Shown here: positions 1 through 7,741 of the stretch, piece after piece
Position numbering within the stretch: position 1 is the first letter of the stretch
Layout of the letters: each line of letters starts with the position of its first letter
Assembly (NCBI RefSeq): GCF_054482595.1
Contig: NZ_CM137008.1
Reading direction: 5' to 3' (one strand)
DNA length: 64,000 bases
Notes under the pieces: model-generated
What the model saw: the letters and a program-made list of their open reading frames with translations, nothing else
Database searches by the model: none
Told to the model about the DNA's origin: nothing
Made by a program: the position numbers and the translations under genes

Positions 1-1408
1 AATAGAGGGTTTGCCCCAGTTTTGCCAGACCATCCTTCAGATTGTTCATTGCTTTTTCGGCGTTATTGGCTTCGTCGAACTGCCCGTCCAGCGTATGCGT
101 GATGCTGACACCCTCTTCACTGGTGAGGGTCAGAATCAGTTGTTCCTGCCAGCCGCCCAGTTCAATGTCTACCGCCACCCGACGTTCGCTGGAGGTTTTT
201 GTCAGTGCCTGCTGCCAGTTATGATCAAGATTACGGTTTAGTGGGTGATGTGGACGAATTTTGTGCAAATCTGCTGGCATTTCATTGGGCCAGACGCGGT
301 ACTGATTTTCTCCGGTTTTCTCGACCGTATTGGCACGAAAACCGACGACTTCACGTTTAATCATCACGTTCAGGCCATCACCATTTGCCAGTGGCTCGGT
401 GACGGCAACATCGAGATGATCTTTCGCCACTTTCAATACTTCGCCTACCGGCAGGCCGATAAATTTCGGCGAATCGAACGCGCCAATATCGCCTTTACGG
501 GCATTCACAAAATAATCTGTGCTACCACGGTGGAAAGTCTTTTCCGTCGATGGAACAAAGAAATGTTCAGTACGACCTGATGAAGCGCGCGCCAGATCGC
601 CACGTTCTTCAATAATGGCATCAAGCATCTGGCGATAATGGGCGGTGATATTCTTCACGTAGCTCATATCTTTGTAACGCCCTTCAATCTTGAAGGAGCG
701 TACGCCAGCATCAATCAGCGCGCCGAGGTTGGCAGTCTGATCGTTATCTTTCATCGACAGCAGATGTTTTTCATAGGAAACCACCCGCCCCTGATCGTCT
801 TTCAATGTGTATGGCAAACGGCACGCCTGCGAGCAATCACCACGGTTGGCGCTACGCCCTGTTTGCGCATGAGAAATGTAGCACTGACCCGAATAGGCCA
901 CGCACAGTGCCCCATGAATAAAGAATTCAATGGTCGCGTCCGTGGCCTGGTGAATCGCGCGGATCTGCTCAAGATTCAGCTCTCGCGCCAGCACAATCTG
1001 CGTGAAGCCAACATCAGAGAGGAACTTCGCTTTTTCAACTGTACGAATGTCGCACTGCGTACTGGCGTGCAGTTCAATCGGCGGAATATCAAGTTCCAGA
1101 ATCCCCATATCCTGAACAATCAGCGCATCGACACCGGTCTGGTAGAGGTCAGTAATCAGCCGTTGCGCGGGTTCCAGCTCATCATCATGCAAAATGGTGT
1201 TAAGCGTGACGAAAATTTTTGCACCATAACGATGGGCAAACGGCACCAGCTCGGCAATATCTTTCAGGCTATTACTGGCATTATGACGGGCACCAAAACC
1301 AGGGCCGCCGATATAAACAGCATCGGCACCGTGCAAAATAGCTTCGCGGGCAATGGCGGCATCGCGTGCCGGGCTTAACAGTTCAAGTCGATGAGAAGAT
1401 ACGGTCAC
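1..1408 (-). CDS. ydcP: Peptidase U32-family protein YdcP (RlhA), 5' part only; GTG start, 3' end beyond window start
   Basis: Minus-strand translation from GTG at 1408 reads VTVSSHRLELLSPARDAAIAREAILHGADAVYIGGPGFGARHN... without stops to position 1; absent from ORF track because no in-window stop; plus-strand ORF 638..1378 is its antisense shadow. Confidence 0.8.
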   Translation of the reverse strand, partial: MTVSSHRLELLSPARDAAIAREAILHGADAVYIGGPGFGARHNASNSLKDIAELVPFAHRYGAKIFVTLNTILHDDELEPAQRLITDLYQTGVDALIVQDMGILELDIPPIELHASTQCDIRTVEKAKFLSDVGFTQIVLARELNLEQIRAIHQATDATIEFFIHGALCVAYSGQCYISHAQTGRSANRGDCSQACRLPYTLKDDQGRVVSYEKHLLSMKDNDQTANLGALIDAGVRSFKIEGRYKDMSYVKNITAHYRQMLDAIIEERGDLARASSGRTEHFFVPSTEKTFHRGSTDYFVNARKGDIGAFDSPKFIGLPVGEVLKVAKDHLDVAVTEPLANGDGLNVMIKREVVGFRANTVEKTGENQYRVWPNEMPADLHKIRPHHPLNRNLDHNWQQALTKTSSERRVAVDIELGGWQEQLILTLTSEEGVSITHTLDGQFDEANNAEKAMNNLKDGLAKLGQTLY

Positions 1409-1480
1409 ATTCTTATCCAGTAGCTGAAAAATGGCGGCTATTTTAGCCACAAGCGCGACGTTGCGAAATAGTTTTCCCGC

Positions 1481-2017
1481 TTAACTGCGCGGGTAATGGA
1501 TGAGGGAATGAAAATGTACGGTTTGCTCCCCACCATTACGATAGATATGCGTGACGTCTGCAGCAAATCGAACGCCTTCCCCACAATTAAGGGTCTGCCA
1601 TTCCCCATCAACGCACAGATCAAGTTGTCCATCAATGACGACGACATGTTCGATTACCCCCTTCTCATGGGGCGTCGATTCGCTTATTGCACCAGATGCC
1701 ATCTGAATCGAGAAGTGTTCGAAGCAGAGTTGTGGATCATAAGGAAACAGCGAAGTGATCACCATCGCCTGCTGTTGTGGATCATAAACTGAAGGCGTAG
1801 CGGACTGCGGCGGAGAAATAAATGTTGAAAATGGTACGTTCAACCCGGTGGCAATTTTCCATAATGTCGCGACCGTCGGACTGGACTCATTACGCTCAAT
1901 CTGCCCTAACATTGCTTTAGAAACGCCCGTCGCTTCTGCCAGTCGCGAAAGACTCCAGCCGCGCTGCTGGCGTAGTTGTTTAAGTGTGGTGGATAAAAAG
2001 CGAGCGAGATTTTCCAT
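1481..2017 (-). CDS. ydcN: XRE-family HTH plus cupin transcriptional regulator
   Basis: 178-aa ORF, N-terminal HTH (LSRLAEATGVSKAMLGQIERNESSP), C-terminal cupin-like region. Confidence 0.85.
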   Translation of the reverse strand: MENLARFLSTTLKQLRQQRGWSLSRLAEATGVSKAMLGQIERNESSPTVATLWKIATGLNVPFSTFISPPQSATPSVYDPQQQAMVITSLFPYDPQLCFEHFSIQMASGAISESTPHEKGVIEHVVVIDGQLDLCVDGEWQTLNCGEGVRFAADVTHIYRNGGEQTVHFHSLIHYPRS

Positions 2018-2108
2018 GCGACTCCTCCGGCAAAACGGAAGTTTATCACTTGTGCGTTATAACGGACAAATGCTACGGTGCCTGTACGCTATAACGCACG
2101 AGGTGACT

Positions 2109-3284
2109 ATGCGTCTGTTTTCTATTCCTCCACCCACGCTACTGGCGGGGTTTCTGGCGGTATTAATTGGCTACGCCAGTTCAGCGGCAATAATCTGGCA
2201 AGCAGCGATTGTCGCCGGAGCCACCACTGCACAAATCTCTGGCTGGATGACGGCGCTGGGGCTGGCAATGGGCGTCAGTACGCTGACTCTGACATTATGG
2301 TATCGCGTACCTGTTCTCACCGCATGGTCAACGCCTGGCGCGGCTTTGTTGGTCACCGGATTGCAGGGACTAACACTTAACGAAGCCATCGGCGTTTTTA
2401 TTGTCACCAACGCGTTAATAGTCCTCTGCGGCATAACGGGACTCTTTGCTCGTCTGATGCGCATTATTCCGCACTCGCTTGCGGCGGCAATGCTTGCCGG
2501 GATTTTATTACGCTTTGGTTTACAGGCGTTTGCCAGTCTGGACGGTCAATTTACGTTGTGTGGAAGTATGTTGCTGGTATGGCTGGCAACCAAGGCCGTT
2601 GCGCCGCGCTATGCGGTAATTGCCGCGATGATTATTGGGATCGTGATCGTCATCGCGCAAGGTGACGTTGTCACAACTGATGTTGTCTTTAAACCCGTTC
2701 TCCCCACTTATATTACCCCTGATTTTTCGTTTGCTCACAGCCTGAGCGTTGCACTCCCCCTTTTTCTGGTGACGATGGCATCGCAAAACGCACCGGGTAT
2801 CGCAGCAATGAAAGCAGCTGGATATTCGGCTCCTGTTTCGCCATTAATTGTATTTACTGGATTGCTGGCACTGGTTTTTTCCCCTTTCGGCGTTTATTCC
2901 GTCGGTATTGCGGCAATCACCGCGGCTATTTGCCAAAGCCCGGAAGCGCATCCGGATAAAGATCAACGTTGGCTGGCAGCTGCCGTTGCAGGCATTTTCT
3001 ATTTGCTCGCAGGTCTGTTTGGTAGTGCCATTACCGGGATGATGGCTGCCCTGCCCGTAAGTTGGATCCAGATGCTGGCAGGTCTGGCGCTGTTGAGTAC
3101 CATTGGCGGCAGTTTGTATCAGGCGCTGCATAATGAGCGTGAGCGCGACGCGGCGGTGGTGGCATTTCTGGTAACGGCAAGTGGATTGACGCTGGTCGGG
3201 ATTGGTTCTGCGTTCTGGGGATTAATTGCCGGAGGCGTTTGTTACGTGGTGTTGAATTTAATCGCTGACAGAAACCGATATTGA
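2109..3284 (+). CDS. ydcO: BenE-family membrane transporter
   Basis: Track ORF 1848..3284; start moved to internal ATG (MRLFSIPPPTLLAGFLAV...) giving 391 aa; polytopic hydrophobic protein. Confidence 0.8.
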   Translation: MRLFSIPPPTLLAGFLAVLIGYASSAAIIWQAAIVAGATTAQISGWMTALGLAMGVSTLTLTLWYRVPVLTAWSTPGAALLVTGLQGLTLNEAIGVFIVTNALIVLCGITGLFARLMRIIPHSLAAAMLAGILLRFGLQAFASLDGQFTLCGSMLLVWLATKAVAPRYAVIAAMIIGIVIVIAQGDVVTTDVVFKPVLPTYITPDFSFAHSLSVALPLFLVTMASQNAPGIAAMKAAGYSAPVSPLIVFTGLLALVFSPFGVYSVGIAAITAAICQSPEAHPDKDQRWLAAAVAGIFYLLAGLFGSAITGMMAALPVSWIQMLAGLALLSTIGGSLYQALHNERERDAAVVAFLVTASGLTLVGIGSAFWGLIAGGVCYVVLNLIADRNRY

Positions 3285-3323
3285 CATCCTCCACGCCCTG
3301 AAGGACGTGGATCCCTGCTACGT

Positions 3324-4532
3324 TCAGGCTGTCGCCTGAATCATTTCGGTGGGTTCCTGCTTCAACGGGCGGCCTGACTGCACCATCTCTCCACAGGCAA
3401 GAACGGCGTGCCCCGCCGCTAAAATGTTACGAGCGCCATTTACATCGGCGTTCGCTGTATATCCACATACCTGGCATCTGAATTTACTTTGTGACAGGCG
3501 GTTCTCTTTCGCTGTATGACCACAGTACGCGCAACGCTGGCTTGTATACGCTGGCGGAACAGCAAGCACCTGACCGCCACGCCAGAGCTGCTTGTACTCA
3601 AGCTGGCGGTGCATTTCATACCAGCCCTGATCCAGTATCGAACGGTTTAAACCTGATTTTGCCCGGACATTGCGCCCCGGCTGGCTGACCGTACCCGCTG
3701 CTGACTTTGACATGTTGCTGACCTTCAAATCCTCAATGACTATCATTGCGTGGTTTTTGCTGACGGCCGTTGTGACTTTGTGAAGGTAGTCCCTGCGGAT
3801 ATTTGCGATACAGGAATGCAGTCGCTGTATTTTGCGTTTCTGCTTCTGCCAGTTGTTGCTGAATTTGACCTTGCGGCTTAACTGTCGCTGAAGTCTCGCC
3901 AGCGTCTTCTGGTTTTTCTGAAAACTGTTTACAGGCTCAAAGACTGTGCCATCTGACAGCGTGGCGAGTTTAGCCACGCCAGCATCCAGCCCGACCATTG
4001 ATGCTGAAGGGTGAGCCGGAGTGGATACTTCACTTTCTGTCTGAATACTGATGTACCACTTACCGCAGGACTGGCTGACAGTGACATTTTTCACAACACC
4101 CGTGACCTGACGGCTGTTCCGGTAGCGCATCCAGCCCAGTTTCGGCAGAAAAATACGGCTGTTTTCCTGATCGAGCTTAACGCCCTGCGGGTAGCGGAAT
4201 GCATCATTCTGTCCCCGCTTTTTGAATCGGGGAAAAGCAGCCCGCTTCCGGAAGAAGTTTTTGTAAGCCCGCTCAAGGTCTTTCAGTGACTGTTGCAATG
4301 GCTGTGAGGGAGAATCTTTAAGCCATTGCGTTTCAGTGGCATTTTTCCACTCAACCAGCCAGGAAGCCATTTTCCCGTAAGGGATGTATTTATTACCGGC
4401 CTCATGATTCTCATTCTGACGTGCCAGAGCACGATTGAAAACGAAACGACATGCGCCTGCGAAGCGCCTCATTTCACACTCCTGTTGACCACCTGGTCTT
4501 AACTGGAATTTAAATGCCTGTAATCGTTTCAC
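3324..4532 (-). CDS. insQ: TnpB (OrfB) RNA-guided endonuclease of IS200/IS605 family
   Basis: 402-aa ORF with RuvC-like motifs [22 protein letters not shown] and zinc finger CAYCG...CQVCG. Confidence 0.9.
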
Positions 4533-4539
4533 AGGTCAA

Positions 4540-5046
4540 ATGATACTTTGGTCTGTGAAAAAAGAAACCGATATCCGGCGTGGAAGGCATTGTGTTTTCC
4601 TGATGCATGTTCACCTGGTCTTTGTCACCAGATACCGACGCCAGATTTTTGACCATGACGCGACAGAAAAACTACGCACTTACTTTTCAAATGTATGTGC
4701 TTATTTTGAAGCTGAACTGGTTGAAATGGATGGCGAACCAGATCACGTCCATTTGTTAATTAACTAACCTCCCAAACTGGCGATATCCAGTCTGGTAAAC
4801 AGCCTCAAAGGCGTATCGGGTAGGTTACTGCGACGAGATCGACCAGATATTGCAGTCAGGTATTACTACAAAGGCGTTTTGTGGAGTCCTGGCTATTTTG
4901 CCAGTAGCTGCGGAGGTGCGCCAATATCCGTCATCCGCCAATACATTGAACAACAGCAAACACCTGGTCAGGTGGAAAACCGCGCCTTATATCCCCGCCC
5001 TGAAGGATGGGGTTTTACGGCGCACCGGATAAAAAGCGCCATCTAA
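4540..5046 (+). pseudogene. IS200-type HuH/Y1 transposase TnpA interrupted by in-frame TAA at 4765-4767
   Basis: N-terminal part ...HVHLVFVTRYRRQIF...DGEPDHVHLLIN then TAA; same frame continues PPKLAISSLVNSLKGVSGRLL...YYKGVLWSPGYFASSCGGAPISVIRQYIEQQ to stop at 5044-5046. Confidence 0.7.
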
Positions 5047-5055
5047 CGATGGCGC
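5031..5055 (-). terminator. Intrinsic terminator downstream of ydcL
   Basis: Hairpin gcgccatc-taac-gatggcgc (5036-5055) followed on minus strand by U5 (5031-5035); 8 nt after ydcL stop. Confidence 0.5.
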
Positions 5056-5063
5056 GTCTGGAA

Positions 5064-5732
5064 CTACTTTTTGTTAACGTCAAACATGGTGGCATCGGTC
5101 GCCATGTCATCAATAACTTGTTTAATATTTTCGAAAGCCATTGGCGTACTTTCGTTATTCAGGTCTTTACCTTCGCCCTGACGAACGACTTTGATAACCG
5201 GTTTATTAGTCGCTGCATCAATCAGCTCACCTTCAAAATAGAGGCGAGTATCCATGGTACGGTGGCCTGTAGCCATTTGCGTCCCCGCAACCACTAATGC
5301 AACAGGAACCACTTCATAGAATTGCAGCCCTTCTTTGCTGGTATCTACACCGGTAATGGCCCCACGGAAAATCAGACTACGCGGCCCAGCGGTGGTAACC
5401 ACTGGTTTACGCTGCGCTATCGCTTCTTTCATTTCGGTGTTGGTATAGTTCAAAATTTTATCCAGAACTTTCTGCCCTACCTGGGTAGAAGGTTTTGGTA
5501 CCGGATAATAAGTGATTGGGTTCCAGACGATGCTGTCATATTTGCTTTGATCAAAACTCGGGTCTACCCAACGTAAAACAGGTTTACCTGTTGCTGAGGT
5601 TGTTTCTTTTAAATCAGAGTAATTGTTTAAAAAACCAGAATATTTATCTGGCTGGGTGATTTTAGAGGCACAACCAGACAGAGCCAACAAGCCGCATAAA
5701 GCTGCAACTTTCGCAAATGATGTGGTACGCAT
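5064..5732 (-). CDS. ydcL: Lipoprotein YdcL
   Basis: 222-aa ORF with lipobox LALSGCAS after signal peptide. Confidence 0.85.
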   Translation of the reverse strand: MRTTSFAKVAALCGLLALSGCASKITQPDKYSGFLNNYSDLKETTSATGKPVLRWVDPSFDQSKYDSIVWNPITYYPVPKPSTQVGQKVLDKILNYTNTEMKEAIAQRKPVVTTAGPRSLIFRGAITGVDTSKEGLQFYEVVPVALVVAGTQMATGHRTMDTRLYFEGELIDAATNKPVIKVVRQGEGKDLNNESTPMAFENIKQVIDDMATDATMFDVNKK

Positions 5733-6035: not shown

Positions 6036-6629
6036 TCATTTTTTACGTGCCAGCATCGTGGCGAAACGCAGTTTAATACGATTACCGTTGGCGTCGGTGC
6101 GGTGCAGCTCGCCGACGTCTTCATTGTATTTCACCCTCTCCCAGCCTTCGTAATATCGACGTAATTCTCCCTCTTTGAAGGCAAACGGGAAGCCGACGGT
6201 ACATGGATAATCAGCGGTATCCATCGCCGCCACAATCAGGTTGTAACCACCAGGTTTAGTGCAACGTTGCATATTGGCAATCAACCCGGGGATGGTTTTA
6301 GCCTCAAGGAACATCAGCACCACAGTCGAAAGAATAAAATCGTACTGTCCATCAAATGTGAGGTTATTCAGATCAACGACCCGGGTGTGTAAATTATCCA
6401 GATTTTCAATGGATTTAATGCGCTCGACGTTGGCGATACTCATGGCATTTTTATCCCATGCGTCAACATCATAACCATTGGCTGCCAGGTAAAGACTGTT
6501 ACGACCATTGCCACAGCCCAGATCCAGCGTTTTACCCGGTTTAACCACTTTCACCGCTTCCAGTACTTCAGAGTGTGTGCGGGTTAATTCATATTTATCA
6601 GTAAAATAGTTTTCGTCACGAATGATCAT
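6036..6629 (-). CDS. tehB: Tellurite resistance SAM-dependent methyltransferase TehB
   Basis: 197-aa [25 protein letters not shown]..., motif [15 protein letters not shown]. Confidence 0.9.
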
Positions 6630-7618
6630 TCTTTGTCCTCTGCTTTCATTAAAACGGCGCGCTCGGTTCTGACTAACAATTTTCCCTGCATCAGAAGCGC
6701 GAAAGTACGGATGAGCAGTATTGCAATAATAAAATTGGTAAAGATAAACAGCGGTACCGCCAGCGTATGGAAAAATCCATTTTCGCTGCCACTCCCCAGA
6801 TGCAAACCGGTGGTTGCCAGTGCAGATACGCCGAACGAGAAACTCCAGAATGAAGCATTAAATGGCTGGGAGAGATACCATGGCATCAGACGTAGCATAA
6901 ACAGCAGTTGCAGCAGTCCATAACCAAAAAGCATTTTCGCCAGCGTATCACCCTCGCCGCCGTTGACGCTCAACCAAGCACTACAGGCCACCAGCGCAGG
7001 AGCGAGCTGAATGCCGAGTGATGTCCGCAGTGCCGTGGGTAATTCTCCCGAACTGCGCAGACGCTGCAAGATCACAGGTTCAAGGCTTAGCCATGAGAAA
7101 ACGCCTGCGCCTAAAAACACCAGACCGGCGTCGGTGTAGCCCAACGCACCACAGGCCATTGCGCTGATAAAGTTGTTGGCAACTGTCGGCAGATACAGTC
7201 CAGGCGTGGTAGCTTCTTCAGGGTGAGATCCGCGCCATAATCCCGCAGTTTGCCAGGCGGCATAAGCCAACTGAACCACGACACCAAAACTGAACAGGCA
7301 CACCGCCAGTGGGCGAAACCACGGAACAAAACCAATCGCCACCAGCATCGTCGTTGCCGGAAACAAACTCACAAAACTGCTCATCACTGGATGGCGCACT
7401 TCTGCCAGCACGCTATGCGGAAAGCGTATGAGTCGGGTAATAAATGCGCTAGTTAACAATCCCCAGATGATCATCGCCAGAATCACCAGCCCATCCCCTA
7501 ACCAGTGGCTGACCTGCCAAACCTGGCTGGCATAGCGCCAGGCAAATCCCATCCCTATCGTCCCCAACACAATACCAAAGTAGCCTGCCGGCAAATTGAG
7601 CACTTTATCGCTCTGCAT
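6626..7618 (-). CDS. tehA: Tellurite resistance / dicarboxylate transporter-family membrane protein TehA
   Basis: Track ORF 6626..7726 trimmed to internal ATG ([19 protein letters not shown]...) giving 330 aa; 4-nt overlap with tehB start. Confidence 0.85.
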
Positions 7619-7741
7619 CTTCTTACTCATTTTGTTTAATTTATAAAGTATATTTGAAATGCATTTTATGGAATTTTCTCGAGCATAGCCAGAGCCGCAG
7701 AATTTGCTACGGTTATAGTAAGTCACCTGTGGGAAAACGCT

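Follow-up and report, generated by a model that had tools for sequence, protein, structure and literature searches.

The stretch of DNA analyzed here (hereafter, the window; 64 kb in length) carries a 1,748-bp IS609 element of the IS200/IS605 family at positions 3281 to 5028, with ydcO and ydcL on either side of it and the E. coli genes ydcO, ydcL, tehB, and tehA making up its flanks. The element is read on the minus strand (i.e., the transposon top strand corresponds to the minus strand of the window). Its boundaries were set using the empty site of strain FEX669, which reads GGCGCTTTTTAT/TATCGG on the minus strand, and, in addition, an independent copy of the element in O157:H7. The pentanucleotide TTTAT (5029–5033, minus strand) lies directly 5′ of the left end (LE), next to which it is also found in the O157:H7 copy; the empty site contains a single TTTAT, the joint at ydcO/ydcL reading TTTAT followed by TATCGGTTTCTGT and so on. 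Comparing these two copies with the empty site, we found no target-site duplication. IS200/IS605 elements are recognized by their insertion 3′ of a specific short target, which is not duplicated, and the window copy displays this behavior.

The insertion is closely interwoven with the neighboring host DNA. The TTTAT target also serves as the T-tract for the intrinsic terminator of ydcL, the hairpin of which was located by a terminator scan at 5036–5055 on the minus strand (an 8-bp stem, six pairs of which are GC, and then TTTTTAT); this terminator is host DNA, and its sequence is also found in genomes with the empty site. On the other side, the stop codon of ydcO is now an IS609-encoded TGA (3282–3284), so that the product ends in RNRY before TGA, compared with RNR before TAA in empty-site genomes.

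The assignment to IS609 is supported by comparison with the O157 copy (97.8% nucleotide identity over 1,753 bp), the TnpA of which is named IS609 family by PGAP, and by 97.7–99.9% identity to 16 other E. coli copies. The K-12 copy at the same ydcO/ydcL locus has likewise been called IS609 (PMC2891674). The 64-kb window holds no second copy of IS609 or of TnpA.

The element carries two genes, 7 bp apart, in the divergent arrangement described for IS605. One of them, tnpB (insQ; 3324–4532, minus strand), is an intact gene of the RNA-guided-endonuclease family; its 402-aa open reading frame (ORF) contains the domain set of a TnpB protein, namely, the Pfam domains HTH_OrfB_IS605, OrfB_IS605 (RuvC), and Cas12f1-like_TNB (zinc ribbon). 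The other is tnpA, whose codons 1–143 occupy positions 4540–4968 on the plus strand. The first-pass annotation had described 4540–5046 as a single frame with a TAA at codon 76 (4765–4767), 92 further sense codons, and a terminal TAA at 5044–5046, and translation bears this description out.

When codon 76 is read as Tyr, the tnpA product matches the Pfam family Y1_Tnp (PF01797) with 139.4 bits (cut-off 23, E = 8e-41). The match is far beyond chance, spans residues 18–139, and stays in the same frame on both sides of TAA-76. The window TnpA and the repaired reference share all but 2 of 143 residues, and no indel separates the window tnpA from the intact O157 IS609 tnpA. Codon 76 encodes Tyr in functional copies, and the nonsense codon corresponds to a TAT-to-TAA change at position 4767; of the 16 other sampled copies, 12 retain the ancestral TAT, and residue 76 is Tyr in 82 of 85 homologues. 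In alignments to solved TnpA structures (ISHp608, ISDra2, and Sulfolobus), the HUH motif (H69-V-H71) and Y135 of the product line up with their counterparts in ISHp608 TnpA, Y135 matching its catalytic Tyr.

Y135 is encoded downstream of TAA-76 and would thus not be translated. Specifically, a 75-aa N-terminal product would keep H69 and H71 and lack everything from residue 76 on, Y135 included. An uninterrupted ORF of natural length, as expected for a functional gene, is therefore missing on two counts: codon 76 is TAA, and the stop at codon 144 has been lost. Consequently, the window tnpA is a pseudogene of the IS200/IS605 Y1 (HUH) TnpA family and not a functional member of it. The identical tnpA sequence of strain 90-3040, which shares a 621-nt stretch with the window at 100% identity, is annotated by PGAP as “IS200/IS605 family transposase, pseudo, internal stop,” and PGAP applies the pseudogene label to every tnpA copy sampled at this locus. 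Nothing in the sequence, homologue, and genome comparisons contradicts this status. A promoter scan of 4300–5150 returned no sigma-70-like promoter, a result that is uninformative on tnpA expression.

The frame that runs to 5046 is longer than the gene. The intact O157 TnpA (WP_000604943.1) has 143 aa and ends with a TAG at the equivalent of window positions 4969–4971 (plus strand), where the window reads CAG. Of the 17 E. coli copies sampled, 16 have this CAG at codon 144, and only the O157 copy has TAG. Homologues with 80–87% identity from Salmonella, Proteus, Photorhabdus, Morganella, Klebsiella, and Yersinia have 138–146 aa, covering 82–85% of the 168-aa query, and all 85 natural-length homologues from other genera end in TP[S/G/D] at the equivalent of codon 143. 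Therefore, codons 144–168 represent read-through, first of the non-coding LE (4972–5028), then of TTTAT (5029–5033) and 13 nt of host DNA, and the terminal TAA at 5044–5046 lies in the loop of the ydcL terminator hairpin. The earlier statement that clear TnpA sequence continues up to 5044–5046 must accordingly be shortened, as TnpA extends only to codon 143 (position 4968); the end of the 4540–5046 ORF is fixed by host sequence and not by tnpA.

This lost stop codon, which adds 25 residues to TnpA, bears on a further claim of the first-pass annotation, namely, that the gene is disrupted by a single stop and not by a frameshift. The claim holds for the reading frame, in that TAA-76 is the only reading-frame lesion in codons 1–143 and lies one base from TAT. 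It does not hold for the copy as a whole, which also carries a substitution of an invariant residue and a change that breaks the stem of the LE hairpin. The substitution is at codon 55 (4702–4704, plus strand), which reads TAT (Tyr) in place of GAT (Asp). The change is non-conservative: residue 55 is Asp in 85 of 85 homologues and aligns with Glu in three solved TnpA structures. T at position 4702 was found only in the window and in three sampled relatives at the ydcL locus, all of which also carry TAA-76.

The LE (4972–5028, minus strand) contains a subterminal hairpin at 4993–5012, which is weakened by a T at position 5008 that interrupts its 8-bp stem on the transposon top strand. All 11 copies sampled at the ydcL locus have this T; the 6 copies at other loci all have C there. 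DNA folding of the inner LE hairpin gave −3.9 kcal/mol (z −0.3) for the window, compared with −7.5 kcal/mol (z −2.9) for the other loci, and folding of the whole LE gave −10.6 kcal/mol for the window versus −18.1 kcal/mol for O157. The right end (RE; 3281–3323, minus strand) has an intact subterminal hairpin at 3290–3311, with a folding energy of −9.9 kcal/mol (z −2.6). IS200/IS605 elements typically bear imperfect subterminal hairpins at each end; in the window copy, the one at the RE is intact and the one at the LE is interrupted. Given that the TnpA proteins of ISHp608 and ISDra2 recognize subterminal hairpins, the weakened LE should impair excision of the window IS609. More generally, we infer that the D55Y substitution, the 25-aa tail, and the T at 5008 would each carry a functional cost.

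To place the window allele among its relatives, we turned to 5,426 complete E. coli genomes, of which 3,223 (about 59%) have the IS609/ydcL junction. An exact 57-mer centered on TAA-76 was found in 1,017 E. coli records when all loci were counted; TAA-76 is thus shared among E. coli genomes and is not a sequencing error. Plain 57-mer counts were rejected as a locus census, since genomes carry up to seven matches to the region and the counts are not locus specific. They were replaced by chimeric 92-nt queries, each consisting of the variant-centered 57-mer and 35 nt of ydcL flank, for which a single mismatch falls below the 99% identity band. The resulting figures combine identity bands with even-step row sampling and are accurate to roughly ±90 genomes. 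By this measure, TAA-76 is found at the ydcL locus in about 950–1,000 genomes, or ~30% of insertion carriers (10 of 36 full-coverage rows; by band arithmetic, 1,397 minus about 401 flank-only records), and about 1,700 genomes have TGA-96 (L96*, the K-12 type) at the same locus (19 of 36 rows). The carriers of TAA-76 include O26, O103, O111, and O121 strains and isolates from cattle, dog, chicken, and human. The junction of a 5-bp deletion (Δ5, 4651–4655) is matched exactly in 672 records; in strain E2865, Δ5 lies ~60 bp from TAA-76 in the same copy. About two-thirds of the TAA-76 genomes therefore carry this frameshift as a second disabling lesion.

The diversity of lesions is also evident in the ten copies that were sampled at the ydcL locus in addition to the window. 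Y76* occurs alone in strain 90-3040, whose tnpA region is the same as that of the window, and together with Δ5 in S1-KEN-03-A and 2015C-4944. L96* is found in K-12, TKEC21-17, ET490, CREC-629, and Ec-U11, E62* in N1083, and a 1-bp deletion in tnpA in 2015C-3905. Uninterrupted 168-aa ORFs that end in the ydcL flank also exist (P0001, representing a cluster of 1,137 sequences, and P0010); therefore, the internal stops are secondary to the stop loss and the LE change that the copies at this locus share.

Several observations on the sampled copies lie beside this allele series. TAA-76 is also present, without D55Y, in the yajI/tsx copy of SCU-109 (L013), and TGA-96 (position 4826) is also present in copies at yedK (L018), ytfB (L015), and gltX (L016). 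Such sharing of nonsense alleles across loci implies gene conversion between copies or trans-mobilization of already defective elements, and it blurs the reading of one independent mutation per lineage. In the record of 90-3040 (L001), which is the best match to the window, ydcL is annotated with an internal stop and tehA as frameshifted, while both ORFs are open in the window (5064–5732 and 6626–7726); either the window comes from a different strain or the 90-3040 assembly contains errors. In TKEC21-17 (L005, locus positions 2085–3529), the ydcL gene beside IS609 is split by an IS1A insertion. The ST131 strain 2822 (L017, locus positions 1263–2100) carries a truncated IS609 relative between yedK and ybcM, in which only an HTH fragment is left of tnpB, and a 179-aa tnpA, annotated as intact, departs from IS609 past the equivalent of window position 4911.

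These data allow us to weigh the possible explanations of the interrupted frame. The first-pass annotation had taken the single nonsense change to mean a recent or easily reversible event, i.e., one hit in an otherwise functional transposase. This is what one would think from a lone reading-frame lesion in codons 1–143 that lies one base from Tyr, from an RE hairpin that is intact, and from an allele that is less decayed than its Δ5 relatives. However, the same TAA-76 is common to ~30% of the roughly 3,220 genomes that carry the insertion, across varied hosts and serotypes, and two-thirds of these have an added frameshift. Furthermore, multiple lesions at this locus, which had been named as the finding that would count against a recent event, do occur in other strains (Δ5 with the same TAA in 672 records, L96*, E62*, and the 1-bp deletion), and the window copy itself also carries D55Y, lacks the natural stop codon, and has a weakened hairpin at its LE. 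We thus regard a recent single hit as improbable, the census having already largely refuted it. An error of sequencing or assembly, with T as the true base at 4767, is the least credible explanation of all; it has in its favor the general possibility of such errors alone, and it would have to account for an identical 57-mer in 1,017 independently assembled records and for 621 nt at 100% identity in 90-3040.

It is also conceivable that the transposase is split or recoded, such that the stop is read through or that an N-terminal fragment and an internally started C-terminal fragment reassemble. TnpA active sites are built in trans across a dimer, the HUH motif and the catalytic Tyr fall on opposite sides of TAA-76, and there is an in-frame TTG at 4879. 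On the other hand, the suggestion that the downstream part could be translated from an internal start finds little to build on: the segment from TAA-76 to the natural end lacks an in-frame ATG or GTG as well as any evident ribosome-binding site, and the sole candidate, the TTG at 4879 (codon 114), would yield a fragment holding just 30 TnpA residues without the HUH motif. In addition, the position of the stop is not conserved, other lineages having theirs at codon 62 or codon 96 or carrying frameshifts instead, and tnpA evolves neutrally (pN/pS of about 1.1–1.6). A split or recoded enzyme is therefore very unlikely, though a little less so than a misread base.

The explanation that we favor, with a probability of about 0.9, is that the window tnpA belongs to an old IS609 copy, fixed in the chromosome and undergoing neutral decay. 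The comparisons show that IS609 inserted 3′ of TTTAT beside the ydcL terminator and that the loss of the stop codon and the LE hairpin mismatch came first at the ydcL locus, because both are found in every copy sampled there. Individual lineages then gained different knock-outs, namely, Y76*, L96*, E62*, Δ5 on a Y76* background, and the 1-bp deletion. In the window copy, TAA-76 is predicted to end translation after 75 residues, leaving the HUH half of the protein without the helix that carries Tyr135, so that no active transposase would be made from this copy. Reversion of the TAA would still leave D55Y, the 25-residue tail, and the damaged LE, and the copy is therefore most likely immobile. 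The TAA-76 allele is thus a lineage-specific form of a well-known and already annotated decaying IS609 tnpA pseudogene. What looked like a clean knock-out by a single hit turns out to be one of the alleles of an old and multiply damaged pseudogene and, as such, matters little, apart from the use that can be made of the TAA-76, TGA-96, and Δ5 alleles as lineage markers at the ydcO/ydcL locus.

The K-12 IS609 at ydcO/ydcL (transposase “ynck” in PMC2891674; tnpB = insQ/ydcM) is the same element at the same site and in the same orientation, with 99.2% nucleotide identity, and it shares with the window the loss of the natural stop, the LE hairpin change, and the intact 402-aa tnpB. It differs from the window in having TAT (Tyr) at codon 76, TGA at codon 96, V27L, and V106F, and in lacking D55Y. 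The K-12 element has been described, as data not shown, as transposition-dead owing to its stop codon (PMC2891674). The O157:H7 IS609 in the ytfB/yjfZ region likewise has the TTTAT target and divergent tnpA and tnpB genes at 97.8% identity, but its TnpA is an uninterrupted 143-aa protein ending at TAG and its LE hairpin is strong (−18.1 kcal/mol). In O157:H7 F7386 (L003, locus positions 1302–1351), a C-to-A change at the equivalent of window position 3294 disrupts the RE hairpin (−6.7 kcal/mol and z −0.8, compared with −9.9 and −2.6 for the window); a mismatch in the RE hairpin is thus found in the only copy whose 143-aa TnpA is intact, which also has the strongest LE hairpin. At a greater distance, the TnpA proteins of ISHp608 and ISDra2 (PDB 2a6m, 2vhg, and 2xm3), which are Y1 HUH single-strand transposases, match the window product at the level of the fold over residues 11–141 (E of about 1e-17 to 1e-19). 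The elements resemble the window IS609 in insertion 3′ of a short target without duplication, and they have subterminal hairpins, of which the window copy has an intact one at the RE and an interrupted one at the LE; the proteins are only distantly related to the product of the window gene, which is a pseudogene.

The picture is different for tnpB. A clean 402-aa tnpB ORF is present in all 17 sampled copies, which represent six chromosomal loci (the window, L001–L003, L005–L016, and L018). In the same 17 copies, tnpA is intact at its natural length in only one and is uninterrupted but stop-less in one more. Over codons 1–143, the tnpA copies show 5 synonymous and 23 nonsynonymous changes, 3 nonsense changes, and 3 indels (pN/pS 1.55), while the tnpB copies show 32 synonymous and 43 nonsynonymous changes with neither nonsense changes nor indels (pN/pS 0.39). 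When the comparison is confined to the 11 orthologous copies at the ydcL locus, pN/pS is 1.12 for tnpA and 0.33 for tnpB (P = 0.003 versus neutrality). Therefore, tnpA is drifting and tnpB is constrained. The minus strand of 3271–3451, at the 3′ end of tnpB and the RE, also gave three Rfam matches, all below threshold: HgcC (22 bits, cut-off 50, E = 0.024), sot0042 (17 bits, cut-off 88, E = 0.16), and RAGATH-18 (25 bits, E = 0.077). These matches sit on the strand and at the place expected for a TnpB guide (omega) RNA. A literature search on insQ/ydcM, or on tnpB combined with pseudogene and purifying selection, returned nothing specific to the ydcO/ydcL locus.

In two reports, TnpB is assigned a role in RNA-guided cleavage of the vacated site, which promotes retention of the transposon (10.1101/2023.03.14.532601, 10.1101/2023.11.20.567912). 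The geometry at this locus would fit such a role, as the sequence just past the RE would directly follow TTTAT at the empty joint. One could tentatively propose, as a possibility that we consider rather doubtful, that an immobilized, RNA-guided TnpB is kept for a function at the level of the host or of the element, with no need of a transposase in cis. Guarding the locus against loss, with TnpA coming from other copies, or a co-opted regulatory or defense role would be examples of such functions. On this reading, tnpB has stayed intact under purifying selection at one orthologous site in ~3,200 genomes, while the adjacent tnpA died repeatedly and independently and the LE was damaged. An intact, constrained tnpB beside a repeatedly inactivated tnpA is the only mildly interesting point to emerge from this locus; the contrast between the two genes, one decaying and one constrained at the same fixed site, provides a convenient natural setting in which to ask what TnpB does after the loss of its transposase.
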